From Trichodesmium erythraeum IMS101 (GTDB lineage: Bacteria > Cyanobacteriota > Cyanobacteriia > Cyanobacteriales > Microcoleaceae), in NCBI RefSeq assembly GCF_000014265.1, contig NC_008312.1, forward strand, positions 4,620,001 to 4,652,000: 32,000 bases of DNA. Reading direction: 5' to 3'. The position numbers and the translations under genes are program-made. Position 1 is the stretch's first letter. Every line of letters starts with the position of its first letter. The notes below the pieces were generated by a model. That model did no database searches. It was not told the DNA's origin and saw only the letters and a program-made list of their open reading frames with translations. This document shows, one piece after another, positions 565 to 20,786 of the stretch.

Positions 565-1650
565 TTAATTCCACTTAAACAAAGAACCACAAGCTACGCG
601 AGTTCTTCCTGCTGCTGCACTCCACAACTCTAGAGCTACATCCTCCAGACTTTCTCCATCTGCTTGAAGCATCCGCGAAATCATAGCAATTTTCCCAAAA
701 GTCCAGAATAAGCCTGCTTCCAGGAAATATGGTTCATTGGTGTTAGTATGTACCCGGAAATCATACAAAGAATAATCGCGACACCCCAATGCAATATGAG
801 CACTTTTAGCTGCATTCGCTAGTTTCTCAAATAACTCTGGAGTAACATTCGCCGGACAAATTGGCTTGGCTATAGGTTTCTCAGGTTGCTTTTCAGGAGT
901 TCCGTCAGATTGAAGTACCAACTTATCATTTACAGTTCTGATAGGATGTTCCTCTGTGACTAAATATTCTATCATAGGTAAAACTTGCAACTCACCCTTG
1001 CGCTCTACCACAGCTACACGCAATTCCCTTCCAGGAATATAATCCTCAACCAACAATTTATCCTCTAATTCAAACCCCTTATCCAAGGCTGCTTCTATCT
1101 GAGATTCATCCCACACCAATGTTACGCCCAAAGAATTGTCTTCCGAAGTTGGTTTCACAACAAAAGGAGGCTTCATTGTTAAAGTTTCTCCCCGCCGTAG
1201 TTGCTGCGCTTTAGCTACTTGTACCCCAGATGCCGAAACAACATTCCGCGTCTGAGCTTTGTTAGTTGCTAGTGCCGTACAATAGGATGGTGACCCCACT
1301 AAAGGTAGATTAAGCATATCCTCAAAAAATGCTCGGAAACTGGTCATACCAAGAAAGCAGAACATGTGGGGAACTACAACATCAATTTGAGGTAGTTGCA
1401 GAATCATGTCCTGAAGTAACATCTTTTCTGATAATGAATCTAAAGAAGCTCCCAACTGCCAAAGACCATCAGGATGTACTACTGCATAATAACTGCTGAC
1501 TCCAACTGGTTGCACTACTTCTTTGGCATAGAGTATTGATAGGTTGTAGTAGAATTCGGAAACACGGGAACCTGCCAGGTGCAAGACTTGTAATCTATTC
1601 ATTGTGGCTAAGGATGAGTGTTGATTTTGATTAATTTCTTCTAATTTCAT
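565..1650 (-). CDS. mysD: MysD-type D-Ala-D-Ala-ligase-like ATP-grasp enzyme, distal paralog (A). Expected to condense a second amino acid onto mycosporine-glycine.
   Basis: 361-aa ORF. By-eye alignment to E. coli DdlB: KPPFVVKPTSEDNSLGV (~IVKPSREGSSVG), EDYIPGRELRVAVV (~EKWLSGPEFTVAIL), omega-loop-like ...NDKLV...ICPA (~EAKYL...FCPA), YFLEAG (~YLLEAN). It is colinear with mysA/B/C on the same strand. Confidence 0.8.
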   Translation of the reverse strand: MKLEEINQNQHSSLATMNRLQVLHLAGSRVSEFYYNLSILYAKEVVQPVGVSSYYAVVHPDGLWQLGASLDSLSEKMLLQDMILQLPQIDVVVPHMFCFLGMTSFRAFFEDMLNLPLVGSPSYCTALATNKAQTRNVVSASGVQVAKAQQLRRGETLTMKPPFVVKPTSEDNSLGVTLVWDESQIEAALDKGFELEDKLLVEDYIPGRELRVAVVERKGELQVLPMIEYLVTEEHPIRTVNDKLVLQSDGTPEKQPEKPIAKPICPANVTPELFEKLANAAKSAHIALGCRDYSLYDFRVHTNTNEPYFLEAGLFWTFGKIAMISRMLQADGESLEDVALELWSAAAGRTRVACGSLFKWN

Positions 1651-1710
1651 TACTAATTATTTTTATTTTATATTTTTTGACTAATTAAATACTAACAGTT
1701 ATCCGCTTTT

Positions 1711-2796
1711 TTAATTCCACTTAAATAAAGAACCACAAGCCACACGAGTTCTTCCTGCTGCTGCACTCCACAACTCTAGGGATACATCCTCCAAACTTTG
1801 CCCATCAGCTTGAAGCATCCGCGAAATCATACTAATTTTCCCAAAACCCCAGAATAAGCCTGCTTCCAGAAAATATGGCTCATTAGTTTCAGCATGTACC
1901 CGGAAATCATACAAAGAATAGTCGCGACAACCCAATGCAATATGAGCATTTTTAGCTGCGTTTACTAGTTTTTCAAATAACTCTGGAGTAACATTCGCCG
2001 GACAAATTGGTTGAGCTATAGGTTTCTCAGGTTGCTTTCCAGGAGTTCCATCAGATTGAAGTACATATTTATCATGTACAGTTCTAATAGGGTGTTCTTC
2101 TGTGACTAAATATTCTATCATCGGCAAGACAGACAACTTACTCTCTCGCTCAACTACAGCTACACGCAATTCCCTTCCAGGAATATAATCTTCAACCAAC
2201 AATTTATTGTCTAATTCAAACCCCTTATCCAAGGCTGCTTCTATCTGAGATTCATCCCACACCAATGTTAACCCCAAAGAATTATCTTCCGAAGTTGGTT
2301 TCACAACAAAAGGAGGTTTCATTGTTAAAGTTTCTCCCCGCCCTAGTTGCTGCGCTTTAGCTACTTGTACCCCAGATGCCAAAACAACATTCCGCGTCTG
2401 AGCTTTGTTAGTTGCTAGTGCCGTACAATAGGATGGTGACCCCACTAAAGGTAGATTAAGCATATCCTCAAAAAATGCTCGGAAACTGGTCATACCAAGA
2501 AAGCAGAACATGTGGGGAACTACAACATCAATTTGAGGCAGTTGCAGAATCATGTCCTGAAGTAACATCTTTTCTGATAATGAATCTAAAGAAGCTCCCA
2601 ACTGCCAAAGACCATCAGGATGTACTACTGCATAATAACTGCTGACTCCAACTGGTTGCACTACTTCTTTGGCATAGAGTATTGATAGGTTGTAGTAGAA
2701 TTCGGAAACACGGGAACCTGCCAGGTGCAAGACTTGTAATCTATTCATTGTGGCTAAGGATGAGTGTTGATTTTGATTGATTTTTTCTAACTTCAT
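1711..2796 (-). CDS. mysD: MysD-type D-Ala-D-Ala-ligase-like ATP-grasp enzyme, proximal paralog (B).
   Basis: 361-aa ORF differing from paralog A at 22 of 361 residues (hand count, about 94% identical). Same motifs as A, but HDKYV replaces NDKLV at residues 241-245. Confidence 0.8.
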   Translation of the reverse strand: MKLEKINQNQHSSLATMNRLQVLHLAGSRVSEFYYNLSILYAKEVVQPVGVSSYYAVVHPDGLWQLGASLDSLSEKMLLQDMILQLPQIDVVVPHMFCFLGMTSFRAFFEDMLNLPLVGSPSYCTALATNKAQTRNVVLASGVQVAKAQQLGRGETLTMKPPFVVKPTSEDNSLGLTLVWDESQIEAALDKGFELDNKLLVEDYIPGRELRVAVVERESKLSVLPMIEYLVTEEHPIRTVHDKYVLQSDGTPGKQPEKPIAQPICPANVTPELFEKLVNAAKNAHIALGCRDYSLYDFRVHAETNEPYFLEAGLFWGFGKISMISRMLQADGQSLEDVSLELWSAAAGRTRVACGSLFKWN

Positions 2797-2977: not shown

Positions 2978-4078
2978 TTACTTCTTTTTCATATCGCGAA
3001 TATTACACATATTTCCGAAAGCGGTGAGAATTTTACGCGGTGGTTGAACATTGAGCCTACCGTGGACAACCTGTAGGTTATCTATTACTAAAATGTCTCC
3101 TTGTCTCCAGGGAAACACTGTAGCATTTTTCCATTCAGCTTCCCCTAATTCTTTTGCCTCTGCCTCTGTTATTTTCGTATTGTTTCCTTCTTCATTAACC
3201 AAGTACATTTTTGGTTGTGCATTGTCTATCCCTTCCAGATTTCTATACAATTTAGAAGGCAAAAAATTGTAGTATATTATTTCTTTGAATGGATAGCGCT
3301 GCGCAATGCTGCGATACCATTCTCTGGCAACAAAAGAATCAAAAGTGCTGAGACAAAAGCACAGTTTGCCCGTTCTTGGGTGATGGAACACGGGAATGTA
3401 AGAACATTCAAAATAAAGAGAACCATCAGCTTTCCACTCAAAATAAAATTCCCCGTCTTCAAGCATTTTTGTAATTTCCTCTCGCGAGAGTTCCTCGAAA
3501 ACTATTCCTAATAAATGATTAGGAACATTTCTCACAAATTTCTGAGGTGTATTAGCGAATTTATGCTGCAAATTAGGAGACAATTCGTTAAAGATTTTTT
3601 CTGTATTAATAATAGGAGTTTCGCCATATAAAGTGGGTTCAATTTGACAGAAAAAAGCCAGACACATGGGCCTAACTGGCACCATATTCAGTTCATTATG
3701 TGGAGGTATTATCAAATTCCCTGGTGCTTCGGAAGAGGTGAAAACTTTATCAGTTATTCGATTTCTTTGAGAGCTGCCAAAATGATACTTTGATGCCAAT
3801 TTAACATTCAATAGCTCTAGGATATTTTCAAATTGTGCCGCAGTTTCTATTTCAAATCCCCGGAATAATAGAGCGCCGTAGTTGTCTTGCTGTCTATGAA
3901 ACCAATCTCTATTTTCCCTGACTAATTCAGCGAGAACTGAGAAGGATTTTTTCTGGACTGGTTCTATGACTAAAGGTAGTTTTTTTTCACCGGTAGTAAA
4001 ACTTTTTTCCTCATCGCGTAAAAACCGCAATTTAATATTTGATGACAGATAATTTGGTAGTTTTTCAATTGTTAGCAT
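2978..4078 (-). CDS. Fe(II)/2-oxoglutarate-dependent dioxygenase, TauD/TfdA / clavaminate-synthase-like fold. Candidate MysH-type MAA tailoring enzyme.
   Basis: 366-aa ORF. Facial-triad candidates are H127-x-E129 (IIPPHNELN; codon H127 at 3698-3700) and H339 in VIDNLQVVHGRLN, followed by Arg (R341/R348), as in CAS/AsnO/TauD-type enzymes. It is embedded in the MAA cluster. Confidence 0.7.
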   Translation of the reverse strand: MLTIEKLPNYLSSNIKLRFLRDEEKSFTTGEKKLPLVIEPVQKKSFSVLAELVRENRDWFHRQQDNYGALLFRGFEIETAAQFENILELLNVKLASKYHFGSSQRNRITDKVFTSSEAPGNLIIPPHNELNMVPVRPMCLAFFCQIEPTLYGETPIINTEKIFNELSPNLQHKFANTPQKFVRNVPNHLLGIVFEELSREEITKMLEDGEFYFEWKADGSLYFECSYIPVFHHPRTGKLCFCLSTFDSFVAREWYRSIAQRYPFKEIIYYNFLPSKLYRNLEGIDNAQPKMYLVNEEGNNTKITEAEAKELGEAEWKNATVFPWRQGDILVIDNLQVVHGRLNVQPPRKILTAFGNMCNIRDMKKK

Positions 4079-4226
4079 AGCTGAAAAATTGTTACTATTA
4101 TTAGTTTTTGTTTGTATTTTTTTTGATTATTTTTCAACTTTCACACACTGATGTATTTAAACACGGAACTGTCGGCCAAAAAATACATTAAGAGAAAATT
4201 GTGGTAGATGCAATAATTAAACTTAA

Positions 4227-5204
4227 TTAATTAGAAGACTCAACTCCTGTATTAACAGATTTACTTGATATAGCCAAATACATTCCCCATAAAATTATTG
4301 AGAAGCTTACCGAACTCCAGAGATTAATATTTTCCGAGAAAATTATCCAACCTTCGATCATACTAAGAGCAGGAGCACATAATGCAACTAAGCTAGTAAA
4401 CCCAGCAGATAATTTTTTGAGAGAATAAGCCCACAGCCCTATACCTATCATTTGACTACAAAGAGCTTGAATAATGACTGCAAGCCAACCAGTTAATGAA
4501 CTTGGAAAAAGTTGATCCTCAGTAATTAGAACTACAGGTAAGAGCAATAAGGCACTCGTTGTTGAAGACCAAGTCATAATTGTAACTGGGTTGAATTGAG
4601 TGCGAAGTTTCTGAACTATAAGTGGGTGTATACCAAAAAATACTGCTGAGAGTAAAGCTGCTAAGTCTCCTAGTAATTGTTCACTAATTCTAAATGAGAA
4701 AATATCATTCACTTCTAACAAGGCAGAACCACATATCGCCACAAACATACCAAGTAGAAATTTATGGTCAAAGGTTTGACTTAAAGCTAACCATGCTCCT
4801 AACACAGTAAATATAGGCACTAAACTATGGAGCATAGTAGAGTGAGCAATGCTTGTCATGGTTAAAGACCAAGCCCAAAGTATCAGACCAATAGATAAAA
4901 GGATCCCATCTGCTATCAGTAGCATTCCTTTTTTAACTAGTTCTGGTTTATTTAATTCAATTTGAGTTTTATTTTTTTGTTTTCGGTAATTTAAAGTTAA
5001 TAATCCATTTAGTAACCAAAAGGGAATAGCTGCAATCCAAAAACGATTGAATATTGTAGCATTTGGACCAAGATTATACTCGCTTAAACGGATAAAAATT
5101 GGTGAAAAAGATATACAGATTAGACTGCCAATTAATGCAGCTAAACAGTCTATAGGTATTGATGAGAAATGGTTTAATGGTAATAATCTAGCTTGATTGT
5201 TCAT
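4227..5204 (-). CDS. EamA/DMT-superfamily (drug/metabolite transporter) membrane protein.
   Basis: 325-aa ORF that is hydrophobic throughout, with about 10 predicted helices in two similar halves. This is the typical EamA-type size and layout. Confidence 0.7.
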   Translation of the reverse strand: MNNQARLLPLNHFSSIPIDCLAALIGSLICISFSPIFIRLSEYNLGPNATIFNRFWIAAIPFWLLNGLLTLNYRKQKNKTQIELNKPELVKKGMLLIADGILLSIGLILWAWSLTMTSIAHSTMLHSLVPIFTVLGAWLALSQTFDHKFLLGMFVAICGSALLEVNDIFSFRISEQLLGDLAALLSAVFFGIHPLIVQKLRTQFNPVTIMTWSSTTSALLLLPVVLITEDQLFPSSLTGWLAVIIQALCSQMIGIGLWAYSLKKLSAGFTSLVALCAPALSMIEGWIIFSENINLWSSVSFSIILWGMYLAISSKSVNTGVESSN

Positions 5205-5246
5205 CTTTTTTCTAATTGCTGAAATTGAAAAAGTAGTAGTATGATT

Positions 5247-6683
5247 TTATTGTTTACTCAAATCTTTAGGCCAAATTTGCAAATTAGCAATTCCATAAAC
5301 AATAAAGCCTGCTGCCATACCAGGCAAGACTTCATAAATAGCGCTTGATAGGTTAAAGCCTTTATTCCATATAATCGCAACTACTATACCAGTAATCATC
5401 ATTGTTATTGCGACTGGAACCCTTACAGGTTTTTGCCACACTCGCAATACTAACAACGGACCTAAAGCGCAGGCTAAAACTGACCAAGAGAAAATGACCA
5501 AAGCAAATACACTATTGTTTGTTATGAGAGCGATCGCTAATACAAAAGCAGTAACAGCTAAGGTAGCAATTTTAGCTTTTCGATAAGAGTTAGATCCACT
5601 GGGAACTAAATCTTGACTTAGTGCAGCAGAACATGATAATATTTGAGAATCTGCTGTAGAAATAGCTGCAGAAAAAAGTCCTGCTAACATCAACCCTACT
5701 AAAACTGCTGGCAATAATTCTATAGATAGATTCGGTAATGCTAACTCTGGGTCACCAGATGTCATTAATTCAGGTAACAAAACTCTGGCAGTTAATCCTA
5801 TACCAAAAGCTGTAGCCGAATTCATTAGACCGCAGACTAATTTTATGTTACGAGCTAACGCTATATTATCTGCAGAGTCAATTGCCATTGCTCTTACTAA
5901 TACATGAGGTTGACCGACAACACCCAAGCCTGACACCAACCACCCCAAAAAGTAAGGAAAAAACCCCCAAGGTAAATTAGTAGGCATCCAATTTGTTAGA
6001 GTGGGGTCAATGGCATTAAGCTTGACCCAAAGTTCTGTCAACCCTCCACAAGCCAGTAAACTTACTATACACAAAATCAACAGAGATAATATCATTAAAA
6101 TTCCCTGCACAGAGTCAGTCCATATAGAAGCACGGATACCTCCTGAAAAACAGTAGACAACCACAATTACAGCCCCAGCAATAATACCCAGTTCATAGTT
6201 CCAACCAAATATAGCATTCAGTCCTTTGCTTGCTGCTACCAGTTGAGCTGCAGCATAAGTACCCAGAATTCCTATGGTAATTAGTGCTGAAATTATTGTA
6301 ATCGAGCGCCCTTGATTTTTTGGACTTAGATTTTCTTGACCTAAGAATGAGGAGATTGTATCTGAGTCTGTTTCCTGAGAAACTAACCTCAACCTTTTAA
6401 ATATTAACAACCAAGCAATATAGTCTCCTATTGTCCAAGCAAGGGGTATCCAAATAGCAGCAAATCCAACTTTATAGATAAAACCTATCGAACCAATAAA
6501 TAGAAACCCACTCTGACCTGTTGCCATTGCGGATAGTGCTGTCAACCAGGGATTAACATTTCTACTGGCAAGTAAGTAATCAGTTGTTGTATTTTGCTTT
6601 TGTGTTGCGGAGTAAATGCCTACTACTGTAAATGATAGCAAAAAGGCTATAAATGTTATCCCAATCCAAATTTGTTTTTCCAT
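5247..6683 (-). CDS. Sodium:solute symporter family (SSS, PutP/PanF-like) transporter.
   Basis: 478-aa polytopic ORF. The N-terminal signature DYLLASRNVNPWLTALSAMATGQSGFLFIGSIG resembles the SSS motif (YFLAGR...LS..AS..S.W...G.PG). Contains one HIP1 site. Confidence 0.8.
   Translation of the reverse strand: MEKQIWIGITFIAFLLSFTVVGIYSATQKQNTTTDYLLASRNVNPWLTALSAMATGQSGFLFIGSIGFIYKVGFAAIWIPLAWTIGDYIAWLLIFKRLRLVSQETDSDTISSFLGQENLSPKNQGRSITIISALITIGILGTYAAAQLVAASKGLNAIFGWNYELGIIAGAVIVVVYCFSGGIRASIWTDSVQGILMILSLLILCIVSLLACGGLTELWVKLNAIDPTLTNWMPTNLPWGFFPYFLGWLVSGLGVVGQPHVLVRAMAIDSADNIALARNIKLVCGLMNSATAFGIGLTARVLLPELMTSGDPELALPNLSIELLPAVLVGLMLAGLFSAAISTADSQILSCSAALSQDLVPSGSNSYRKAKIATLAVTAFVLAIALITNNSVFALVIFSWSVLACALGPLLVLRVWQKPVRVPVAITMMITGIVVAIIWNKGFNLSSAIYEVLPGMAAGFIVYGIANLQIWPKDLSKQ
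5530..5537. repeat. HIP1 octamer GCGATCGC.
   Basis: Exact match read in the sequence. Confidence 0.95.
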
Positions 6684-6699
6684 TTTTCACTATTAAATT

Positions 6700-7025
6700 G
6701 TAGTATTATTTTATTGTTTACTCAAACTTTTAGGCAAAACCGTAAAATTAGCAATTCCAAAAAAATAAAACCTGCGACGATGCCAGGTAAGACTTCATTA
6801 ATAGCAATTGATTAGGTTAAGTTCTTTATTCCAGATAATGGCAATAATTATACCTGCAATCATTATCAATCATTGTTATTGCTACTGGAACACTTATAGT
6901 TTTTTGCCACACTGGCAATACCAATAACCGACCCAAAGCACAGGCTAAAATTTACCAGGAGAAAATCACCAAAGCAAATATACTATTATTTATTATCAGA
7001 GCTATCCCTAACACAACAGCAAAAC
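6700..7025 (-). pseudogene. Decayed 3'-terminal fragment (roughly the last 100 codons) of a second SSS symporter copy.
   Basis: 6711-7020 aligns with 5247-5560 (offset 1464) at clearly non-random identity, including the stop-proximal TTATTGTTTACTCAAA. It carries indels (for example an extra TATCAAT in ATCATTATCAATCATTGTTATTGC) and in-frame stops. The HIP1 site of the intact copy has decayed to GCTATCCC. Confidence 0.8.
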
Positions 7026-7681
7026 ATAATATAATAATATATCTTATTTTATTCTGCTGTATCTAATGATTTCTCAAGTTGGAGGGAGGCGAGGTTCTAC
7101 TTCTTTAGAGCTGACAAACTATTTATTAGCTTTTCTGCTAAAAGTTACAAACTTGGGATTAAAATCATGTGGCAATATTTCATAAGTTTTCAGCCATCAA
7201 ATTTGAGGTAACTTTAAACGACCTACCCCCCTGACTCCCCTACCACTAAGTTGATAGATGTAGGTATGGAACCATTAAGGGTAAAACTATCATTTCTGCC
7301 TTTTTTTCTTGAGTTTAGGTTGACCATACACTTTGGTAAATTTTCGTTTCCAAGCAACTGAAACAATACCTCAAAGCATATCAAGGAGGTGTTAAGTGAA
7401 ACTGCTTAGTACGAATAGTTTTTTTTCGGTTTAACTATTGCTACTAAAAGTTTATGCAGATAAATTGCAGTCGGAAATTTGATGTTACCACCTTGATTAC
7501 CCATGTTATGATTTAATATATTTTGGGTTATGATATCCAGCTTACTTGCATGAATTGTTATAAACTTACAAGATTATAGCTAACAGCTTATGTAGCCTTG
7601 AGTTTTTAGCTGACTTGTAAACGCTGCTTGCAAATAAATAAGTATCTTGTCTAGAAAAGACAAATAGCTAAATAGTGACCT

Positions 7682-9046
7682 TTAATCCCCTCCCAACTCT
7701 ACCAGTTTTCCAATATTAAAGTCAATTCTTACCCAACCTTTAAATTTGCGTAAATTATTGAGTAGTAATAAGAAAATTTGCCAGTGGTGAACCATCAAAA
7801 ATGGTAAGGGGTCATTCACTTGAAAAATAGCATCTTTTCCTTGATTAATTCTTCTAATCCAAGCTTTCAATTGCTCTAATGACCTAACTCCTGTTAGCCT
7901 CCATAATTCATGGTAAGTCCAATAAGTAGGTTGACTATTTAGTCCCGGTAATATTGGGTTTTCATTATCATTTTGACTATCTTTTAAATAAGCATCTGCT
8001 ACCCCTGGATGGTCATGAAAAGTTGTAATTGCTGAATGAGTTCTGGGATTACATTCTATGGGAAAAACTCGACCATCCTCTGTCTGAATAAAATCAAATG
8101 AAATTTGACCAGTAATATTTAATTCTCTAACAAATTTTTCTACCCAATCGTAAATTTGTGGATTATCAACATGAGCATAATTGACTTGAAATTCTGATGA
8201 TTCGCAACAGCAATACAGTCTGATTTTCCCTTTTCTAACAGTGCTATGAGTACAATATTCTTTGCCTTTAACAAACTCTTGCATAATCCATGGTTTCTCT
8301 TCACTAATAGGCAAATTTCCAACAAATTGTTCCATTTCTGCCCTTGAATTCATGGGCAATTTTGTCAAGTCTAAACGACGTACTGAATCGTAAGGAATAC
8401 TTTTAAGAATATATCTACTCCCATCAGCAGCAAAGTCAAAATTGAGAATTTGTTTTGGGTCTGTAATTAAAAAAGATTTTGGTACAGATAAACCAAAACT
8501 TTTAGCTTTTTCCATAAATGTGAACTTGTTATCTAACATTTGAGTTACTTCTACGTCAAAGTGCAAAACTTCACAATATTCAGATAAAAGTGGTTTTGCT
8601 AAAGATTCATAGTAACTTCCTACTGGGCTAGATACTGGAATAAATACATCTATGTTTTCTTTTTTTACAATCTCTAATAATCCCTGACAATAACCATCCC
8701 AATCTTTATTTGGAGCAGGTATTGTATAGAAACCTGTAACGGCATTAGAAAATCTATTTCCTGATAACCAATATTTATTTGTTTCTAATATAAAAGCTTT
8801 ATGACCTGCTGCATGAAATGAACGGGCAAGTTGCAAGCATTTTGTCATTTTTGCGCCCGTGATTAAGATATTTTTGGGATTATCTGCCACTAATTTTTTG
8901 GTAAATGGTAGACTGATTAAATTCCAGAGTAGTAAAGGTATTACCCTTAATAAATTAAATGGTAAAAAAATCAATAATAATGCAATAGTTCCGATATTTT
9001 GGAACAATGCATAAGCACGTACTTGAATAAATAATATTAGTCCCAT
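7682..9046 (-). CDS. mysC: MysC ATP-grasp ligase (4-deoxygadusol + glycine -> mycosporine-glycine).
   Basis: 454-aa ORF closely matching the remembered Anabaena variabilis Ava_3856 sequence: ITGAKMTKCLQLARSFHAAGH, SIPYDSVRRLDLTKLP, KPWIMQEF, CTHSTVR, QISFDFIQ, IECNPRTHSAITTF, PLPFLMVHHWQI, IDFNIGKLVELGGD. The N-terminus is hydrophobic, as in homologs. Confidence 0.92.
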   Translation of the reverse strand: MGLILFIQVRAYALFQNIGTIALLLIFLPFNLLRVIPLLLWNLISLPFTKKLVADNPKNILITGAKMTKCLQLARSFHAAGHKAFILETNKYWLSGNRFSNAVTGFYTIPAPNKDWDGYCQGLLEIVKKENIDVFIPVSSPVGSYYESLAKPLLSEYCEVLHFDVEVTQMLDNKFTFMEKAKSFGLSVPKSFLITDPKQILNFDFAADGSRYILKSIPYDSVRRLDLTKLPMNSRAEMEQFVGNLPISEEKPWIMQEFVKGKEYCTHSTVRKGKIRLYCCCESSEFQVNYAHVDNPQIYDWVEKFVRELNITGQISFDFIQTEDGRVFPIECNPRTHSAITTFHDHPGVADAYLKDSQNDNENPILPGLNSQPTYWTYHELWRLTGVRSLEQLKAWIRRINQGKDAIFQVNDPLPFLMVHHWQIFLLLLNNLRKFKGWVRIDFNIGKLVELGGD

Positions 9047-9833
9047 CTTTAGTAGTTTTGTAGAGATAACAATATTTTATGAGTCTTCATTTATGCTTTG
9101 GTGAAAAGAAGGTGATCATTAGCCTGAAAGCTTTCCAAGTTCAACTCTAAACTTTGGAGAGTTTCAAGAGACTTTTTCTTTTCTATAGTATTTATTTATG
9201 AGACAAGTCGGGTATTCAAACCAATCTTAATTATAGAAATTCCCCGATAGGCGGGCGAAGTTTTCAAAATAATTGTTCAGTAAAAGTACTTTTTATGGGG
9301 TTATTTGAGCATAAGCAATAACTATTATCTTGTCATAAATAGCATTAATTTTGGCAACAAAGCCATTGAGACACACAATATAACAAATCAATTCCTCAGG
9401 AATAGTGTAGATTTCTAAGGGTTAACCATTGTTAATATTGACTACTGATAATTGAATATTAGCAGTTTTTAGTAGTTCTTCTTCAATAGTAATTAAAATT
9501 TCGTAGTATAACTGTGCTTTATTTCCTGTGAGTTGATGTAGTTTATTATTAAAAATAGTTGGAAATGAGAACAAGCCAGAAGCCGGAGAAAGTTAATTAC
9601 GCTCAATAAATTTCCCAGGCACAAGCTACAAATTTCCAGTATTATTTAATTTACTTCCCTCAGTCGCACTTAATGATAGTTCTGGTATATTCGGTAACAT
9701 TATAAATGCTACCAAATCTTGAGGAACTTATGCTTCTACGGATCAGGCAAAAGGTAAAAAGTTAAAATGAGCTGACAAAAGGTTGTAAACTTTTACTAAT
9801 TCCTCATGTCATAATATTTTCCTCAAATCATAA

Positions 9834-10664
9834 CTACTTTCGCCTAATAATAGTTAACCCATCTCGTAAAGGTAGTAAAACTTGTTCTACTCTAGGATCT
9901 TCTGCAACAAAGCGATTAAATTGAGCGATCGCTTCTCCATTAAGATTACGTTTTTCTTTCGGTAGATAGGGTTCCCCTTGAAGTAAAGTATTATCGACAC
10001 AAATAAATCCATTTGTTGCTAACAAACTTGTATCCAAAAGTATTTTGAAGTACTCTATATACTCTTTTTTATCAGCATCAATAAAGACTAAATCAAAAGT
10101 TTCTCCTGCATCTGCCAACTTCTTAATGGTTTCTAGAGCAGGTGCAACTTCCACCGAGATTTTGCTTCCATGTGGAGACCCATCAAAACAAGATTTAGCA
10201 AAGTTAGATACATATTCATCCACTTCACAAGCAACCATCCGCCCATTTTGTGGTAAAGCTTCCGCCATTGCCAATGCTGAATACCCAGTAAACATCCCTA
10301 TTTCCAGGATACTTTTAGCCCCAATCATATGAACAAACATTTTTAAGGTTTGTCCCTCAATATGCCCAGATAACATTTCCTGCTCTAATTGACGCACAGT
10401 CTCGCTATTGGAAAATCTTGAACTCCATGGTTCTTGACGAGTCTTTTCTGCTAATGCTGTCAAAGCAGGAGATTCTTGAGTGGTATTTTCTTCTAAATAG
10501 GGGTCAAGACCTGCCCCTAATTGATACGCTTGCTTAATAGCATTAGATAATTCTGGTGGTATTTCTGCAGTTTCTGCCATCTTGACAATTCTTTCAAGTT
10601 GCTCTACCAAAATACCTAATGGTGTAACTGGTCTGGCAGTTTCTGTTTTCACAACGGTTGTCAT
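9834..10664 (-). CDS. mysB: MysB SAM-dependent O-methyltransferase (catechol-OMT-like).
   Basis: 276-aa ORF. Near-identical blocks to remembered Ava_3857: ARPVTPLGIL, EQEMLSGHIEGQTLKMFVHM, LEIGMFTGYSALAMAEALP, FDLVFIDADKKEY, GFICVDNTLLQGE, NGEAIAQFN, DPRVEQVLLPLRDGLTIIRR. Confidence 0.93.
   Translation of the reverse strand: MTTVVKTETARPVTPLGILVEQLERIVKMAETAEIPPELSNAIKQAYQLGAGLDPYLEENTTQESPALTALAEKTRQEPWSSRFSNSETVRQLEQEMLSGHIEGQTLKMFVHMIGAKSILEIGMFTGYSALAMAEALPQNGRMVACEVDEYVSNFAKSCFDGSPHGSKISVEVAPALETIKKLADAGETFDLVFIDADKKEYIEYFKILLDTSLLATNGFICVDNTLLQGEPYLPKEKRNLNGEAIAQFNRFVAEDPRVEQVLLPLRDGLTIIRRK
9925..9932. repeat. HIP1 octamer GCGATCGC.
   Basis: Exact match read in the sequence. Confidence 0.95.
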
Positions 10665-11339
10665 ATTTTTATCCCTTACTACTTAATAACAGCAGAGCAG
10701 TAGAGCATCTAGACAAAAATTATAGGTAAAATCTAAGCCTCAAATCACTAAAATTTTCCCTGATAACAGATAGACTCGAAGTGGAAAAATGTTTCTCCCT
10801 TCTACTTATAGGAGAGGGTTCAGGGAAGGAACAGTATATTCTCCAACTTACCTACATTTTCAATCTAGACACACTAGTAAGGTGGGCTAATATTGAGTTA
10901 TCTGTACTCAACTAATCGAAAATTTTCTCATATTTGCCCACTTTAAACGTTTCTCCCAAAAAGGAGAAGAAAAAAAATCTATCGTCAGGACTGAGGCATA
11001 AGCTAATAGATATCTCAAGAAAAGATTTTTTAAGCTCTTACCCTGCCGTTCCCAAATCGGCATTTTTGGAGAGGTATAACATATCTAATAGGGATAAACA
11101 ACCGTTCACCCCTACAGATAGTGCATAATTTTATACGCCCGGAATTTTTCCTAATTATTTTCAGAAATCAGAAAATTGATATAAATGTCACTAATTATGA
11201 CATTTTAATATTTACTTTCAGCTTCAATTTTTACCTGTCAGCAGCACAACTATGACAATGATAAACATTTAAGCTAACCGCATTTCTCTATCTTGAGAAT
11301 TGCATATCATAAGGGGTTATTAGCAGACTCCCTATTTTT

Positions 11340-12689
11340 TTACTCCAAACCTAGGTCGCTTAAATACATTTCTTCACCTTTTCCTTGACTACCAAAAGAA
11401 GTAAAAGAAGCACAAAATTTCTTATGTTCCTCAACAGCAGATGTTAATAAATCTGGAGATATTTCCTTCGCAAAACTACAAGAACCAATACCTGTAGGTA
11501 GGGGTGCCCACAACCTACGACCGCGCTTACGAGTTATATTTTTCTGAGCTTGAAGCATTAACTCTGTATCTTCGATAATTTCATGGTAAACAGACAAACC
11601 CATAGAATGACACAAGTTAACTATTCGATCACGTTCATTTGTTGTTATCCAACCCATCTCTAACGCTAAAGTAGCTCCAAGAGACATACCAATAGTTACA
11701 GCATGACCGTGCATTAGTTTGACCACTGGCTCAAAACGGGGACTCCATGTATGACCGTAAGCATGAGGTCGGTCTTGATAGGTTTCAAACATATTTGTTC
11801 CTTCATGCTTCATATAAGAATACAAAGCACGATAAATCACCTCATCAGATATTTTTACCAGTTCCTCATCTGCATCAAAATTAGCAAAATGAGTTTCAAC
11901 TAAACGTCGACCATATTTTTCCAGCAATTCAAATAATGTTTGATCATCAGTAACTGCCATTTTAATAATTTCTGCCATTCCGTTGCGAATATGACCTTTT
12001 GCCAAAGTACGGAACAAAGTACGGTCTACTATAGTCATCACAGGGGGATGATATGCTCCAATACCATTTTTAAATAGCTTACTATTTGTGCAGGTACGAG
12101 GAGATGGTCCAGCATCAATAGCAGCAACAACTGATGTTCCAATCATTACATAAGGTGTCCGCCGATGTTGTAAACTACAGGCTAAACCAGCAACATCACT
12201 GAGTACACCACCTCCAATTATCAAAACAGGTTCGTTACGAGATACATCACAACCATCTTTGCCCAAGAATTGCAATATTTTATGGACCGTATCAGTATTT
12301 TTGTCTGACTCCCAAGCACGACAGACAAGAGTTTTCAGAGGAATATCATTCTGCTCAAAATAATTTGTCAATGATTTTCCATAAAGTTCATCTACCATGT
12401 GATCGACAACTGCTACGCATCGATTACGACTTTTATAGATATTAGCTAAAATAGGGTTAGATGGATCTAAAACTCCATTTACTAATTTGACTTCTGATTT
12501 GAGGGTAAATGTTGCAGAAATCTCGAATGAGCGACCATCATCCACTGCCTTTATTTCTCCACGACCATCATACCACTCTGAAGTACGATATTGTTCTGCA
12601 TGATCGCGCCGAATACTTGGATCAAATACGAAGTCTGGCTTGTTGACTTTTTCAATTACTGGTACAGAGGTTGATATTGCGTTGCTCAT
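11340..12689 (-). CDS. mysA: MysA, DHQS-like sedoheptulose-7-phosphate cyclase (desmethyl-4-deoxygadusol synthase type).
   Basis: 449-aa ORF. Dehydroquinate-synthase-like blocks: LIIGGGVLSDVAGLA, ...IDAG..., KNGIGAYHPP, NGMAEIIKMA, AYGHTWSP, HGHAV. It lies first in the colinear mysA-mysB-mysC order. Confidence 0.85.
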   Translation of the reverse strand: MSNAISTSVPVIEKVNKPDFVFDPSIRRDHAEQYRTSEWYDGRGEIKAVDDGRSFEISATFTLKSEVKLVNGVLDPSNPILANIYKSRNRCVAVVDHMVDELYGKSLTNYFEQNDIPLKTLVCRAWESDKNTDTVHKILQFLGKDGCDVSRNEPVLIIGGGVLSDVAGLACSLQHRRTPYVMIGTSVVAAIDAGPSPRTCTNSKLFKNGIGAYHPPVMTIVDRTLFRTLAKGHIRNGMAEIIKMAVTDDQTLFELLEKYGRRLVETHFANFDADEELVKISDEVIYRALYSYMKHEGTNMFETYQDRPHAYGHTWSPRFEPVVKLMHGHAVTIGMSLGATLALEMGWITTNERDRIVNLCHSMGLSVYHEIIEDTELMLQAQKNITRKRGRRLWAPLPTGIGSCSFAKEISPDLLTSAVEEHKKFCASFTSFGSQGKGEEMYLSDLGLE

Positions 12690-13769
12690 GATTTGTATTT
12701 AGGTAATTGTTTGCTTTAGAGGTATTGTCTGATGTTATTGCACAACAAACCAGTCTGCCTACACCTGAAGTCAGTGTAAGAGCTTAAATTAACACCTTAT
12801 TATTGAGATGAACATAACCCAAAGGATATACCATTTTTTTGAGTGGTTTCTAAGTATTGAATGATAGAGTAATTATTTTGGTAATTCTCTAAATGCAGTA
12901 ATACTTATAAGTAAACTTCTTTGACTGTAAAGATAAATTAACTACAAGAATCACTACCTATAAACGAATACCATTATTTTTATCTCTATTTTACGCCTAA
13001 GTATCGGCATATTAAAGTTTACCATCTCACCTTTTTGTTTGCTTTTATCAAAAAGCATTTTGATTTCTGGAATCTTGGTGGTATGAATCCTGCACAGACT
13101 TATGTTACCTCAATTTTATCCACAGTAAACTAGACAATCTTCCTAACATAGAAGATAGTATAATGTAATAACTTTTCCTTGAGAGTATTTGGTTCAGCTT
13201 CCTTATTATTGATAGCAAAACTAAACTAATACTTATTAGTCTTCCCTTATTCTTCTAGTTCTCCACAGTTCTATAGTACAAATTTTCTCTTCTTCCTTCT
13301 CCTCTAGCTTCCAATTTAGATTATAACGGTGATTCATGTTTTGACCTTGATTTAACAGTTGCCTAATAATTATGGGGTTTAGCATAGTTGTCAAATTCTT
13401 GATTCATGACTAATGGAACTTACCACGAGTTTTAATTGTACCAACATCAATTTATTGAATTATTACTTTAGTTAGCTTCTAGATATCTTAAAATCACTTA
13501 TGCTTGAGGGCATACTACATAAGCATTTTCACATTCTAATACCTAACACTAATAGAGGGGGTCAAAATTTGTCTATTGTTTATAGGAGATAAACTGTTGA
13601 TTAGACACAGGTTTATCAAGTACCCAATAGAAAAGTTCATCCTGAGCTTACCCGCTAGCAAAGTTTCATTATCTTAATATATTGGCATTGAGGTAAATCG
13701 TACCTGTTATGATTAATAAGACCATACTATTAGTGCTAACACTTTTTAACAATAAGCAACAAGACTAAC

Positions 13770-14230
13770 TTACTTTAGGGGATATCTAAGGAATAGGGTA
13801 GAAAGCTTTTCTACCAAGCTTTTTATAAAAATCCCACAATCACCATTCTAGTAACGATCAAGGCGAAAATCATCTTGATCAGCAATCACTTTTTTATAAC
13901 CTAAATTATTTGAGGCTTCTCGAGTCTAACTAACAGTTTTATTAGTATACACTTCTGAAACATCTAAGACAACCTTACTATACTTAGTAGCTTTATGCTT
14001 TAAAAAAAGTTCAAATCTATAATGTACCCAGCTCAACATTTGTCTAACTGACTTGCTTATGAGTTTACTATTAGATTTGATTCTAGTTCAAGAAAGTTCA
14101 AAAATTAACAGTAAAATTACATCAAAGTTATGAACCAATAACAAAGCTGTCCTTTGATGCAGCTCAGTCATAGGAGAATCCTAATCTTTAACCTCATTCG
14201 GTTAGCTGCTTTTTTAATCCTTTACTTTAT
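13770..14230 (-). mobile_element. tnpB: Decayed TnpB (IS200/IS605/IS607-type OrfB) C-terminal relic; pseudogene.
   Basis: The minus-strand translation reads ...RIKKAANRMRLKIR / (frameshift) DSPMTELHQRTALLLVHNFDVILLLIFELS*TRIKSNSKLISKSVRQMLSWVHYRFELFLKHKATKYSKVVLDVSEVYTNKTVS*TREASNNLGYKKVIADQDDFRLDRY*NGDCGIFIKSLVEKL. This matches the TnpB pattern (ELH....L...FD.I.LP.FE...M, ML....HY.F...L..KA..YG..V..V.E.YTSKTCS.CG...LDRD.NGA.GIF). It has at least 3 in-frame stops and 1 frameshift, and the Zn-ribbon cysteines are lost. Confidence 0.75.
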
Positions 14231-14942
14231 TAAGTAAAGTATTCTTATTGCTTCTGACTATGGGACCTGATTTGTATCATTGTCTTAACATTATATAACT
14301 TATTGTAAACAAATATTAGCAAATCAGCAATGGTTAGTCAATCGTCAAAACAGCTTTATAAATTTCTCCCATTGATTTCTAAAGTTTATCTTTAGTGTCG
14401 ATTTTTAGTTTAACCCTAATTCCGAATCATTTTACTTAACATCTAGTTTGTATTTGTTAATATTTCTTAATTATATATTAATTTAATAAATGATTAAAAT
14501 TAAAACAAGCTTAATATGATATAATATTTAGCCTATTGATTTTCAGAACTATCAGCTTAAGTCAAAATTATTAACTGTAAAGGATTTCAATTCTATTAAG
14601 TGGTCTTGCAAAATTAATTACACATTTATAGAAGGTGAACTCTTGGCCTTCTAAAAGCACAGATAATTAAAATAGGTAAATAATTTTGAAGAGGTACTTA
14701 ATGCCCTAATACTAAAGGTTAAAAAAGAATAGGGATTAAATAATACAGCAGATTCTACTTTAGTGAGGTACACCCATAAGAGCGAGATACTGGCATTGCA
14801 AAGATTTAATTGTTAATATTTGTACTTCATGTACTTGGAATATACTGTAAGTATGATTAAAAGACTTTATGAATCTATCCCACTAATAGTCAAATGATAA
14901 TACTATGATAAGCGTTACTCAGTTATGGTAAATTGAAAGAGG

Positions 14943-15767
14943 ATGCCAGGTAAATTTGAAGGACTAAGTGACATAGAATAGAAGTTATTTGAAGATATTT
15001 TTCCTATTTCACCACAAAAAAGAGGTAAACGTATGCCTCATACTCCCCGTACGATATGTACAATCATACTCTTCTCTACATATTAATAACAGGTTGTCAT
15101 TGTTGTGATGTAACAGCTCGAGAGATTTGGGCCTCCAAGAGTTCAGTACACAGATGGCTGAAGCGTTAGGAAGAAGATAGAACTCTCAAATACCTACAAG
15201 GACGAATTTTAGGAATTCCAGAAAACTAAGGACTAATCAATTGAAGCTACACAGCCGTGGACGGCTCTTTTTCCCCCGGTCAGGGTAGAGGAGAGGATGG
15301 AGCTTATGGCCATAAAAGGAAGGGGATTTTAATTCATACCTTGAGAGAAGGAAATGGATGACCAGTAGCTAACTGTACTACCCCCTCTAATGGCAATGAA
15401 AGAGAACAGCTAATTCCCTTAATTGATAGTACTAAGTGTGAAAACTTAAAAACGGGGCCCTCCACGTAAGCAATTCCAAGTTATTACCACTGATAAAGGA
15501 TATGATTGTCAACGACAAAGACAAGCAAGGTATCAAAGAGGGATTAGACCTCAACTGCCCAAACGACTTTGGAAAGACAAAAAGAAACCAGGACGAGGGA
15601 TCAAAATTTCTGTACCTCGTTTTCAACAAGAGGGTTGTTTTGCCTGGTATCAAGGTAAATATCGTCGCCTAGTTGTAAGATGGGGGCCTATTTATGCTTG
15701 TTTTGGTGCTTTTGTAGCGCTCGCCACTATACTTATGTAGATTAATCCCATTTTATTAGTGGCATAG
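14943..15767 (+). mobile_element. Decayed IS5-family (DUF4096 + DDE_Tnp_1-type) transposase relic; pseudogene.
   Basis: The plus-strand translation, reconstructed across several frames, reads MPGKFEGLSDIE*KLFEDIFP...KRGKRMPHTP...LLYILITGCHCCDV...WASKSSVHRWLKR*EEDRTL...AVDGSFFPGQG...AYGHKRKGILIHTL.EGNG.PVANCTTPSNGNEREQLIPLIDS...VITTDKGYDCQRQRQARYQRGIRPQLPKRLWKDKKKPGRGIKISVPRFQQEGCFAWYQGKYRRLVVRW...FVALATILM*INPILLVA*. DDE-type blocks are present, but there are many stops and frameshifts. No terminal inverted repeats were recognised. Confidence 0.8.
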
Positions 15768-16297
15768 GTTCATAGAAAATGTCCTTTTGACAAAAAAGAT
15801 AATTTCCGAACTAAAAAATTATATTGAAGTCATTCCTTCTGACTCCTGATTTCTCATTTTTAGGGGAGTAAGGAGGAGTCTTGATCAATAGTTTATAATT
15901 TGTAGCAAATATTGATCACGCTTTGTATAACACTTTTTCGTAGTGCAATTTTTAGTGCTTTTCAGATTTATAAACTACATCTTCACAACAAAAACATCTT
16001 AGGGACATTTAATTTAACCTCCCTACTATGGTCTACTAATTATGAAAACTACTGTAAGTCAACAAAGGCTGAAGTTGATCAGAATTTACCAAGGTTAACC
16101 TAGAAACTGCATTTTTTGTAGATACATGTTCTTAAAGATAACAATTGCTCCTAAAAGTCAGGTGCGCAAGTGTGTAAGTCCTATTGATATTTTTCTAGAG
16201 AATTGAAACTGATTATGGTATTATAAATATTTGTAAGTTATAGCTCTAATTTAATAATAGCCATTGTTATATATTGCCAATAGCTATTAATGAAAAT

Positions 16298-17155
16298 ATG
16301 GCGAATCAAGAATATCTAGCCTTACTGAATCGTGGTGTAGTGACATGGAATGAATGGAGATATAAAAATCTACATTTACAACCAGACTTTTCTAATGCTA
16401 ACTTGAGAGGCTTTAATCTAGAAGGTTTTAATTTAAAAGGATTGAATTTAACAGGAGCTAATCTGTCTTTAGCTCGGTTAATTAATGCTAATTGTAGAGA
16501 TACTATTTTTACTTCAGCTCAACTAATTAATGCCAATCTAACTGCTATTAATTTTCAGGGCGCAAATTTAAAAAATACTAATTTTATTTCTGCTAATCTA
16601 AGGCTTGCTAATTTAATCGAAGCTAATTTAGTAGATGCTAATTTAATTGGAACTGATTTACAAAATTCTAACTGTAGGTATGTTGATGGTACTTCAGCAG
16701 ATCTCAGTAGAAGTAACTTAGCCAAAGCAGATTTAATGGAAGCAAACTTCAGTTATGCTAATTTTAGTTATGCTAATCTTCATCAAGCTGAATTAATTGG
16801 AGGTTATTTTTATCAAGCTAATTTTCACCAAGCTAATCTTATTAAAGCTCATCTAACTGGGATTTATTTATTAAATTCTTCTTTGATAGAAGCTAACCTG
16901 TCTGGAGCAGATTTGAGATTTGCTAAACTCAAAAAAGTTAACTTTCAAGATGCAAATTTACAGGAAACTTATTGCCGAGGTACTAACCTAAGTGAAGCTA
17001 TTTTAATCAGAGCAGATTTAAGAGGAGCAAATTTCAGGGGAGCTAACCTAAATAAAGCTAATCTTACTGACGCTTTAATTGACAATATTAACCTAGTAGA
17101 CGCTAATCTTCAGGAAACAATTATGCCGAATGGCAAAATTAATTACAATTATTAA
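16298..17155 (+). CDS. Pentapeptide-repeat protein.
   Basis: The ORF consists almost entirely of A(D/N)LxX pentapeptides (ANLSLARLINANCRDTIFTSAQLINANLTAINFQGANLKNTNFISANLRLANLIEANLVDANLIGTDL...). The track ORF starts at TTG 16274. The ATG at 16298 (MANQEYLALLNRGV...) is preferred as the start, but this is uncertain. Confidence 0.85.
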   Translation: MANQEYLALLNRGVVTWNEWRYKNLHLQPDFSNANLRGFNLEGFNLKGLNLTGANLSLARLINANCRDTIFTSAQLINANLTAINFQGANLKNTNFISANLRLANLIEANLVDANLIGTDLQNSNCRYVDGTSADLSRSNLAKADLMEANFSYANFSYANLHQAELIGGYFYQANFHQANLIKAHLTGIYLLNSSLIEANLSGADLRFAKLKKVNFQDANLQETYCRGTNLSEAILIRADLRGANFRGANLNKANLTDALIDNINLVDANLQETIMPNGKINYNY

Positions 17156-17844
17156 CTTTATATTTATAAGTTTTTCCTCTTTATCTTTCACCAACTCATT
17201 CCTAGTTTTCTCTTAATTTTGATACTCTTTATGTCCATGCTTGGCTGCTAGGCTGAAAAGCTAAAAAAAGCGAAGAACTGGGATAATCGAGAATAAAGGA
17301 AAGTCAACATGCCCAAAAAGAATGGTAAAATTATAACCCTAGAAGTCCTAACTATAGTAGATAAAGAATGGTAATTTATTGTTAAATAAGCCTTATAAAT
17401 TTTCTATAAAGGAACCTGTTAACCCTAAAGCTCAGGATTTAGAGCACTCAGAGCTACTAAGAATAAATAAAAGTACGTTTTATTCAAACTTTTTGGCCAT
17501 AAAGGAAGTCAAAATAAAGAAGTAATGGAACTAGACGTTGAAAAATATTTCTACAGAATTAGCCACAGCTTGATGATGTCAAATATAATTTTCTCCCAAC
17601 AAATCAAAAAGGGGCTGTGGAAATTTTTAATTCTAGGTTGGTTTGCTTAATTTATAGAACAAGGAACACCCCATTAGGGTGTAGTATTACCACTAGCCAA
17701 CATAGCATTAAACAGTATGGAGGACATAGACCCTTCGGTAAACTGCCGATCTATTGGTGTTTTTCCTAAATCCAAAACACAACCCTGAGAAGATTTGAGA
17801 AAAAGTGCCACAATTCCTCTCATAAAGGGGAATGAACATATTAG

Positions 17845-19001
<1,157 letters not shown>

Positions 19002-20198: not shown

Positions 20199-20471
20199 CT
20201 ATTTTTTGCCTTTACCCTTTTTAGATTTAGTAGATTTAGATTTATTAGATTTAGATCCACTACCCTCTTGTTTACTATATTTACGCATAAACCTTTCAAC
20301 CCTTCCTTCAGTATCAATAATTTTCTGAGTACCGGTAAAATAGGGATGATTTCCCGACCAAACATCAACATGAATTTCAGGTTGTGTAGAACCAACTGTC
20401 ATTACAACTTCACCATTGCAATAAACTTTAGCTTCTGGATACCATTCAGGATGAATATCAGCTTTAGGCAT
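20199..20471 (-). CDS. rpmE: 50S ribosomal protein L31, with no CxxC zinc motif and a Lys/Ser-rich C-terminal tail.
   Basis: MPKADIHPEWYPEAKVYCNGEVVMTVGSTQPEIHVDVWSGNHPYFTGTQKIIDTEGRVERFMRKY..., followed by the tail SKQEGSGSKSNKSKSTKSKKGKGKK. Confidence 0.93.
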   Translation of the reverse strand: MPKADIHPEWYPEAKVYCNGEVVMTVGSTQPEIHVDVWSGNHPYFTGTQKIIDTEGRVERFMRKYSKQEGSGSKSNKSKSTKSKKGKGKK

Positions 20472-20786
20472 TTTCTTGACTTTACTTAATTACAAATATT
20501 TTCTTTACTCTTAACTGTTTTAACATAATCATATTTAGTAGTTCTTTGAGATAATTTAATTCACCAATAAACTAGATTTTAATGATTAACAGTTAATTTT
20601 ATTGTATCAAATTATTTGCCAATTTTTACAGGATGAATAGTAAAAATTGGCAAATTAACTTTGTTGTCTCAAATGTATAGAAGTCGCCATTACTGAGGAG
20701 GACATTGTCCATCTGCTCAAATATAGTCCATGCTACGAATTTGATTTCTGACTTCTAAAGAACGAACTTCTGATTTCAGCTACATA

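Follow-up and report, generated by a model that had tools for sequence, protein, structure and literature searches.

Among the cyanobacterial genes for mycosporine-like amino acids (MAAs), mysD encodes an ATP-grasp enzyme, similar to D-Ala-D-Ala ligases, through which mycosporine-glycine receives its second amino acid. In Nostoc sp. UHCC 0302, MysD1 and MysD2, which are 84% identical, prefer Thr and Ser, respectively, and give parallel MAA variants, and 27 cyanobacterial genomes carry several mysD copies near MAA clusters (PMC11378024). Changes at residues L249/A257 of the Nostoc punctiforme enzyme (F247/S255 in Nostoc linckia), or a swap of the omega loop, switch the product between shinorine and porphyra-334 (PMC11983340); these determinants are also credited to Kim et al. 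2023, as cited in later papers. In DdlB, a Ddl (D-Ala-D-Ala ligase) of Escherichia coli, Tyr216 takes part in a triad with Glu15 and Ser150, and the substitution Y216F gives depsipeptide activity (PMC3378904). The present analysis compares with these systems a tandem pair of mysD genes of Trichodesmium erythraeum IMS101, located on a stretch of 32,000 nucleotides (NC_008312.1, positions 4,620,001 to 4,652,000, hereafter the window). Its members are referred to as copy A (the downstream copy, with Leu at residue 244) and copy B (the upstream copy, with Tyr at this residue).

Partial concerted evolution by gene conversion is known from tufA/tufB in Salmonella and from the psbA copies of cyanobacteria. 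The vast blooms of Trichodesmium lie at the surface under intense UV. Its MAA content is very high and includes compounds awaiting identification, and to our knowledge its MAA genes have not been characterized previously. The explanation that we favor for the mysD pair, with a confidence that we consider high, is that conversion homogenizes the 5′ part of the two genes, that the 3′ part is paralog-specific, and that the two encoded enzymes likely differ.

The tandem pair and its mosaic of identity

As the initial annotation had it, both genes are 1086 nt long, with a start-to-start period of 1146. The protein of copy A matches exactly the IMS101 entry ABG52128.1/WP_011612484, and that of copy B the entry ABG52129.1/WP_011612485 as well as entry P0124 of our sequence collection; judging by the order of accessions, their locus tags would be Tery_2970 and Tery_2971, respectively. 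Both proteins contain the Pfam domain Dala_Dala_lig_C (PF07478, E = 1e-19 for copy A and 1.3e-23 for copy B). The AlphaFold2 model of copy B (pLDDT 89.8) adopts the Ddl fold with a TM-score of 0.76 against Thermus Ddl (6u1k), the top Foldseek matches being Thermus Ddl, DdlA, and VanA (TM-score 0.72–0.76); no solved MysD structure was present among the PDB matches of the sequence and structure searches. Furthermore, K243, D297, and E311 are invariant in 105 MysD-family sequences. D297 and E311 align with D257 and E270 of E. coli DdlB (hhalign) and K243 with a Lys of Thermus Ddl (phmmer), its equivalence with DdlB Lys215 depending on the loop alignment chosen. Sequence and fold comparisons identify both genes as tandem mysD paralogs in the MAA cluster of T. 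erythraeum IMS101. The 3′ part of the spacer between them resembles the region upstream of copy B, ACTGTTAGTAT being common to both, so the duplicated unit would have taken in a leader of ~45 nt. A promoter and terminator scan, in which sites were no more numerous than expected by chance, found no terminator-like site between the copies.

Codon-by-codon comparison of the copies gave 63 nucleotide mismatches (94.2% identity) and 22 differences over 361 residues, and their distribution agrees on recount with the sharp mosaic first described. The sole amino acid change within residues 1–138 is E5K, and the 397 nt of gene nt 19–415 carry a single mismatch, which is synonymous (Leu86 codon, CTA/CTG, at 1393/2539). 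The rest of the gene (gene nt 416–1086, positions 565–1235 of copy A) accumulates 59 mismatches over 671 nt (91.2% identity) and 21 amino acid changes, where the hand count had given about 60 and about 91%. Three tiers of divergence are apparent, of 0.25% at nt 19–415, 4% at nt 416–641, and 11% at nt 642–1083. A uniform distribution was rejected by permutation: no stretch with one mismatch or none is longer than the 397-nt tract, a length that none of 200,000 uniform permutations attained (largest run, 275). When only codons specifying an identical residue in copies A and B are counted, the longest stretch containing no more than one difference extends over 151 codons (0/200,000 permutations). 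A maximum chi-square scan placed the breakpoint at gene nt 641, with 13 mismatches on its 5′ side and 50 on its 3′ side (0/5000 permutations), and a very dense patch of 12 mismatches occupies nt 642–675. The individual replacements named in the initial annotation were all confirmed at their codons, i.e. KGELQ/ESKLS at 218–222, L244Y (TTG in copy A, TAT in copy B), E253G, and K262Q.

Tandem mysD pairs are present in several Trichodesmium assemblies, and comparison of IMS101 with Trichodesmium sp. MAG_R02 (L005) revealed that the two parts of the gene have different histories. Codons 196–361 pair by paralog, with distances of 0.026 for A-A, 0.040 for B-B, and 0.106 for A-B, while codons 7–138 pair by genome, with an A-B distance of 0.003 within IMS101 and of ~0.04 for every IMS101-MAG_R02 pair. 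Quartet sites follow the same partition: 11 of the 12 sites grouping by genome fall at nt 63–479, all 33 sites grouping by paralog fall at nt 642–1071, and one site displays the third topology. Neighbor-joining on codons 7–160 united the IMS101 copies A and B in a clade with 100% bootstrap, and on codons 214–361 it recovered the A-orthologs (100%), the B-orthologs (100%), and all Trichodesmium sequences (99%) as clades. The synonymous divergence (dS) between copies A and B is 0.011 for codons 7–138, 0.08 for codons 139–213, 0.61 for codons 214–262, and 0.27 for codons 263–361. Against orthologs in another Trichodesmium species, dS over codons 7–138 amounts to 0.11–0.145, which excludes constraint as the cause of the 5′ identity.

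This dS contrast, the switch in quartet sites, and tracts that differ between strains strongly support the earlier proposal that the 5′ identity stems from gene conversion. The duplication is older than the split of T. erythraeum from other Trichodesmium lineages, and both copies fall within Trichodesmium. Since the duplication, the 5′ ~640 nt have been homogenized repeatedly through non-reciprocal homologous recombination, either copy serving as donor. The 3′ ~440 nt of T. erythraeum have escaped conversion, the two copies evolving there as separate orthologous lineages.

The mosaic was mapped in four T. erythraeum strains (IMS101, L001, L002, and L035), the last three of which share the tandem architecture. 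Copy B of L001 (strain GBRTRLIN201) differs from that of IMS101 at seven codons between 86 and 176, all seven of which hold the copy-A allele, so that A alleles cover nt 258–526 of its upstream copy. The opposite direction is seen in L035, whose downstream copy has B alleles across nt 454–606, and in L002 both copies have the B alleles of nt 513 and 525. L001 and L002 differ from each other at codons 47, 171, and 175, in parallel in both copies. The tracts thus differ among the four strains, run in both directions, and are confined to nt 258–606, IMS101 being the least homogenized strain. All 50 differences at nt 642–1071 are kept in 4/4 strains. This pattern shows that conversion is still ongoing within T. 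erythraeum, with tract ends that vary by strain.

The omega loop and the second-substrate side

By eye, the initial annotation had aligned Leu244/Tyr244 with Tyr216 of DdlB, and this equivalence is probable, without being settled. It is favored because K243 is the only invariant Lys of the loop (105/105 sequences), because in the copy B model helix 240–243 lies just before residue 244 (strands are formed by residues 252–254 and 262–264), and because the Nostoc motif Y-A-D-K-L resembles Y-E-A-K-Y of Ddl. In addition, phmmer against Thermus Ddl places K243-Y244 on the K-Y motif. Weighing against it, and against a functional reading of the Leu/Tyr difference, is the fact that the automated alignments conflict, one of the three supporting it: in hhalign the loop match to E. 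coli DdlB is displaced by three residues, with low confidence, and MAFFT places the K-Y of Ddl on K254-Q255. When the family profile was compared with E. coli DdlB by hmmsearch, the alignment ended before the loop, and profile matches to DdlA sequences of the PDB aligned the loop in yet another way. Nor is the Tyr216-Glu15-Ser150 triad conserved in MysD, as position 32 is variable and the equivalent of Ser150 is the invariant Asn172.

Across 105 family members the column of residue 244 consists of 72 Leu, 30 Tyr, 2 Phe, and 1 Cys; on a tree from which the loop was left out, parsimony requires ~21 steps for it. In Okeania and relatives the gene order is EamA-mysD(Tyr)-mysH-mysD(Leu) (L008 6162–11083; L010 3040–9964), whereas in Trichodesmium it is EamA-mysH-B(Tyr)-A(Leu), without a mysD copy upstream of mysH. 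The Trichodesmium copies cluster together (99% bootstrap) beside the Leu-type genes of Okeania and Dapis, a joint clade of Trichodesmium copy B with the Okeania Tyr-type genes obtaining 0–10% bootstrap, and the Tyr codon with its neighbor reads TAT-GTA in Trichodesmium versus TAC-GAT in Okeania. As the Okeania Tyr copy is not a close relative, sits at another position of the cluster, and uses another codon, the Leu/Tyr pair has arisen twice. Two origins and ~21 steps next to an invariant K243 speak in favor of residue 244 mattering. The idea that the copy B loop is a relic of, or was converted from, the Okeania Tyr-type paralog was considered and rejected, given distances of 0.19–0.23 to that type against 0.14–0.18 to the Leu types and the bootstrap values of the joint clade. 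L010 also contains a third, far more divergent mysD at 8894–9964.

The MysD of the Nostoc sp. HK-01 plasmid (L034), with F249 and S257, allowed the published specificity residues to be located through an ungapped alignment of the loop. Residue 257 of the N. punctiforme enzyme falls on K262 in copy A and Q262 in copy B, and residue 244 falls on Nostoc Leu239, which is Leu in all Nostoc enzymes examined; neither of the published specificity residues corresponds to residue 244. Two aspects of this mapping argue against a difference in specificity being readable from the loop. Residue 249 falls on K254, identical in both copies, and the loops are unlike (DK[LY]VLQSDGTPxKQPEKPIAxP in the Trichodesmium type versus DKLKQTDDGxLxxxAKxNxKxW in Nostoc) in proteins that are ~40% identical as a whole, so the Nostoc L/F and A/S rules are not transferable.

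Outside the loop, residue 322 (Ala in copy A, Ser in copy B) aligns with Ser281 of E. coli DdlB, on which hhalign and phmmer against Thermus Ddl agree; the family column contains 85 Ser, 19 Gly, and 1 Ala. From the DdlB-phosphinate structures, we take Ser281 to bind the carboxylate of the second D-Ala. A search of the literature yielded no usable citable description of DdlB Ser281 and Leu282. Residue 322 is one of six positions (283, 302, 303, 317, 322, and 333) at which the paralogs differ in all lineages that retain two distinct copies. Residues 218–222 and 244 are also fixed between paralogs once the loop-converted L030 lineage is set aside, and N241H, E253G, and K262Q are confined to T. 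erythraeum. The omega-loop difference is retained in T. erythraeum, MAG_R02, and St5_bin2_1 (P0125) and lost elsewhere. As a separate observation, the Mg-binding Asn272 of DdlB aligns with the nearly invariant Gly313 (E311-A312-G313) in this MysD clade, which suggests an altered metal coordination compared with Ddl.

Divergent enzymes or redundant copies

We propose that the converted half, comprising the N-terminal and central (ATP-lid) domains, can be shared between the copies, and that the unconverted half would carry the residues lining the second-substrate site in Ddl enzymes and in Nostoc MysDs. Under this proposal the two enzymes most likely differ in amino acid preference or kinetics. 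They would thereby widen the range of MAAs, and the MysH-like dioxygenase encoded next to them could convert these further. The boundary of conversion would probably be held jointly by selection against hybrids and by local divergence, i.e. the mismatch patch at nt 642–675. Trichodesmium is highly polyploid, as reported, which would favor frequent conversion. Functional divergence of copies A and B is plausible rather than proven. In its favor, the unconverted half holds every residue possibly touching the second substrate, and a set of replacements stays conserved between species despite conversion next door. Trichodesmium holds both Ser-derived MAAs (shinorine and asterina-330) and Thr-derived ones (porphyra-334 and palythene) (PMC3083659).

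Several findings weigh against this proposal, in addition to the loop alignments discussed above. The ratio of nonsynonymous to synonymous divergence (dN/dS) in the divergent part is 0.16–0.19, the same as between orthologs, and carries no signal of positive selection. Moreover, the boundary is not absolute outside T. erythraeum. In the Tara Oceans Trichodesmium contigs L030 and L031, the copies are identical up to ~nt 834 and both have KGELQ and Leu244, and in L036 (ENA ERZ780648 NODE_2, 3001–5232) both tandem copies encode an identical protein with Leu244. The loop difference is therefore dispensable in at least some Trichodesmium. Q262, at the one published specificity position that differs between the copies, is specific to T. 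erythraeum. One promiscuous MysD can make several MAAs, and no published paper naming the locus tags or assaying either protein was found in the literature. The view expressed in the initial annotation, that the C-terminal half is kept distinct in a way that fits functional divergence, is plausible rather than demonstrated. It is weakened by a dN/dS without a signal of positive selection, by conversion of the loop in two lineages, and by a possible mechanical barrier.

Two further observations were made in these lineages. The L036 protein mixes the A-type T317 and A322 with the B-type Q333, homogenization being complete at the protein level. In L037 (ENA ERZ780647 NODE_71, 2161–2940), an in-frame deletion joins ~159 codons from the N-terminus of the MysH-like gene to ~100 from the C-terminus of the upstream, B-type mysD. 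Such a strain would be left with a single mysD and without an intact mysH; the fusion could also be an assembly artefact.

The foremost rival explanation is that the copies are redundant and act by dosage, that conversion stops near nt 640 mechanically because the 3′ part is too diverged for heteroduplex extension, and that the 22 differences, L244Y included, are effectively neutral. It has to be taken seriously, even if we consider it less likely than not. A dN/dS of ~0.2 in paralog and ortholog comparisons alike is what it calls for, and the dense patch at nt 642–675 could block conversion alone, which also tells against the selective boundary proposed above. Other lineages have homogenized the loop or the whole gene and yet keep both copies intact, and in one strain the L037 deletion destroys the upstream copy. 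Neutral differences, however, sit uneasily with a Leu/Tyr pair that arose twice independently in the clade and with a column 244 toggling ~21 times between essentially two residues. The same is true of the six replacements, with the Ser281 equivalent among them, that are fixed wherever two distinct copies persist, and of the full set of 50 3′ differences retained in 4/4 T. erythraeum strains beside active conversion. Omega-loop changes, moreover, are known to alter MysD specificity (PMC11983340).

A recent duplication, after which copy B acquired its 3′ half by recombination with the mysD of another organism, would account for the sharp boundary and for the dS peak of 0.61 in codons 214–262, for which segment alone the monophyly of Trichodesmium receives 20% bootstrap. 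We consider it very improbable, since the pair and the B-type 3′ half are common to several Trichodesmium species, which form a clade with 99% bootstrap over codons 214–361, since no sampled sequence is closer to the copy B loop than the Leu-type genes of Trichodesmium and Okeania, and since strain tracts in both directions show that conversion is ongoing. Virtually no credence is left for a 5′ identity produced by purifying or codon-level constraint or by faulty assembly. Within the family, protein conservation is indeed higher in the N-terminal half, but constraint is refuted by the higher dS seen between orthologs (0.11–0.145 versus 0.011 in the same segment), and likewise by the quartet sites. 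As for the assembly, the IMS101 genome is finished, copy A is nucleotide-identical in the independent assembly L001 and protein-identical in the metagenome assemblies L002–L004, and the tandem pair recurs in L001, L002, and L035; the pair is therefore not an assembly artefact.

Going beyond the favored explanation, a bolder reading may be offered tentatively, which we deem rather unlikely to hold in full. In this reading, a Leu244/Tyr244 isozyme pair was rebuilt by a new tandem duplication, conversion acts as a natural domain shuffling that keeps the scaffold half (ATP and mycosporine-glycine) identical, and selection holds apart a specificity module (244, 317/322, 283, 302, 303, and 333), residue 244 acting as a recurrent two-state toggle with ~21 switches. 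If so, a more restricted range of MAAs would be expected in field samples of loop-converted lineages.

Should the two ligases differ in amino acid choice, the pair would provide a minimal natural set of 22 substitutions, six of them conserved across species, for engineering MysD specificity, and the Ser281 equivalent would become a new candidate determinant beside the known omega-loop residues. It would also constitute a natural experiment, since some wild lineages have erased the loop difference. Should the copies be redundant, the locus would be a textbook conversion mosaic of limited wider interest. In itself, the pair documents partial concerted evolution within a biosynthetic gene cluster, cleanly and at strain resolution.

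The surrounding mys cluster and described systems

Pfam searches on the neighboring open reading frames (ORFs) gave the cluster order mysA-B-C ... mysH-like-mysD-mysD (Table 1). The order of the mys genes is the same in L001 and L002, and L030 has all of them except mysA, which lies past the contig end.

Table 1. Features of the mysD pair and of the mys cluster, in window coordinates
Feature	Position	Strand	Remarks
mysD copy A (downstream copy, Leu244 type)	565..1650	-	ORF; 361 aa + stop
mysD copy B (upstream copy, Tyr244 type)	1711..2796	-	ORF; 361 aa
Spacer between mysD copies	1651..1710	-	60 nt
Homogenized tract, copy A (gene nt 19-415, codons 7-138)	1236..1632	-	one synonymous mismatch/397 nt
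Homogenized tract, copy B	2382..2778	-	partner of 1236-1632
Strain-variable conversion zone, copy A (gene nt 416-641)	1010..1235	-	9 mismatches in IMS101; A/B allele mixes in L001, L002, L035
Strain-variable conversion zone, copy B	2156..2381	-	IMS101 private alleles L139, G152, L176; G152 and L176 also found in the wild (L035 and P0133)
Paralog-specific 3′ part, copy A (gene nt 642-1086)	565..1009	-	50 mismatches; beta-turn 218-222, omega loop, DdlB Ser281-equivalent segment
Paralog-specific 3′ part, copy B	1711..2155	-	partner of 565-1009
Omega-loop region, copy A (codons 231-266)	853..960	-	N241, K243 invariant, L244 (919-921), E253, K254, K262 (865-867)
Omega-loop region, copy B	1999..2106	-	H241, K243, Y244 (2065-2067), G253, K254, Q262 (2011-2013)
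Codons 317-322, copy A	685..702	-	T317 ... A322
Codons 317-322, copy B	1831-1848		G317 ... S322; partner of 685..702
TauD/TfdA-family dioxygenase, MysH-like, Tery_2972	2978..4078	-	Pfam TauD E = 3.6e-20; directly upstream of copy B
Rest of mys cluster within window	4227..12689	-	Pfam
EamA transporter	4227-5204	-	Pfam
SSF transporter	5247-6683	-	Pfam
mysC (ATP-grasp)	7682-9046	-	Pfam
mysB (O-methyltransferase)	9834-10664	-	Pfam
mysA (DHQS-like)	11340-12689	-	Pfam

Between mysB and mysC, positions 9281–9559 of the minus strand hold what is left, in degraded form, of a PanD-like gene for aspartate 1-decarboxylase (97 aa aligned, 62% identity). An intact gene (127 aa) occupies this site in other Trichodesmium (L030 1635–2018) and in Okeania (L008 1376–1741). 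A decarboxylase conserved inside the MAA cluster might serve the supply or modification of an amino acid substrate. The intact SSF gene is immediately preceded, at 6714–7086 (minus strand), by fragments of a second sodium:solute symporter gene. L032 and L010 each possess two intact SSF genes in tandem, and one SSF copy has therefore been lost in IMS101; in L008 the second copy matches in fragments only.

No ORF of at least 120 aa was found across the long stretches 12690–16273 and 18955–20786, and an Rfam scan of the whole window gave no match. Trichodesmium genomes have a low coding density, with which these ORF-poor stretches fit. Short tandem repeats occur at 16607–16647, 18937–19001, and 20220–20256.

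Beyond the 5′ end of the window, downstream of copy A, the L001 assembly (11614–19404) encodes an NAD-binding dehydrogenase (322 aa), a C-A-T-TE nonribosomal peptide synthetase (NRPS; 1331 aa, MysE-like), and an O-methyltransferase; judged from L001, the dehydrogenase start would fall near window position 37 on the minus strand. With a MysE-like NRPS downstream of copy A, MysD and NRPS routes for the second amino acid would therefore both be present in Trichodesmium. Dapis is likewise reported to have MysD and NRPS routes (PMC13643306).

Multiple mysD copies, MysD paralogs of divergent specificity, and partial conversion between tandem paralogs are each already known, and a search of the literature found no paper on this Trichodesmium pair or on conversion within a mys cluster. 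With Nostoc sp. UHCC 0302, the locus shares the presence of two MysD ligases in one genome. The Nostoc copies, attributed to horizontal transfer, reside in distant loci, whereas the Trichodesmium copies are arranged head-to-tail, 60 nt apart, and are 94% identical and partly homogenized by gene conversion. Regarding the omega-loop determinants of MysD (PMC11983340), four of the 22 paralog differences (241, 244, 253, and 262) lie in the loop, and residue 262 corresponds to A257 of N. punctiforme and S255 of N. linckia; in contrast, the position of L249 (F247 in N. linckia) maps to K254, which is the same in both Trichodesmium copies. The Tyr216 switch of Ddl (Y216F in E. coli DdlB, and Phe in the depsipeptide-forming Ddl of lactic acid bacteria; PMC3378904) offers a parallel in that an aromatic or aliphatic residue right after an invariant Lys differs between similar ATP-grasp ligases, the equivalence of the residues not being settled. 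Ddl works via the Tyr216-Glu15-Ser150 triad, in place of which MysD has a variable residue 32 and Asn172, and its first substrate is D-Ala, that of MysD being mycosporine-glycine.

As with tufA/tufB and psbA, the two mysD copies are closer within a genome than orthologs are between genomes, their synonymous sites are homogenized, and the conversion occurs in discrete tracts. Unlike in those pairs, conversion in Trichodesmium covers part of the gene, with a boundary that coincides with the start of the substrate-side half and differs by strain and species.

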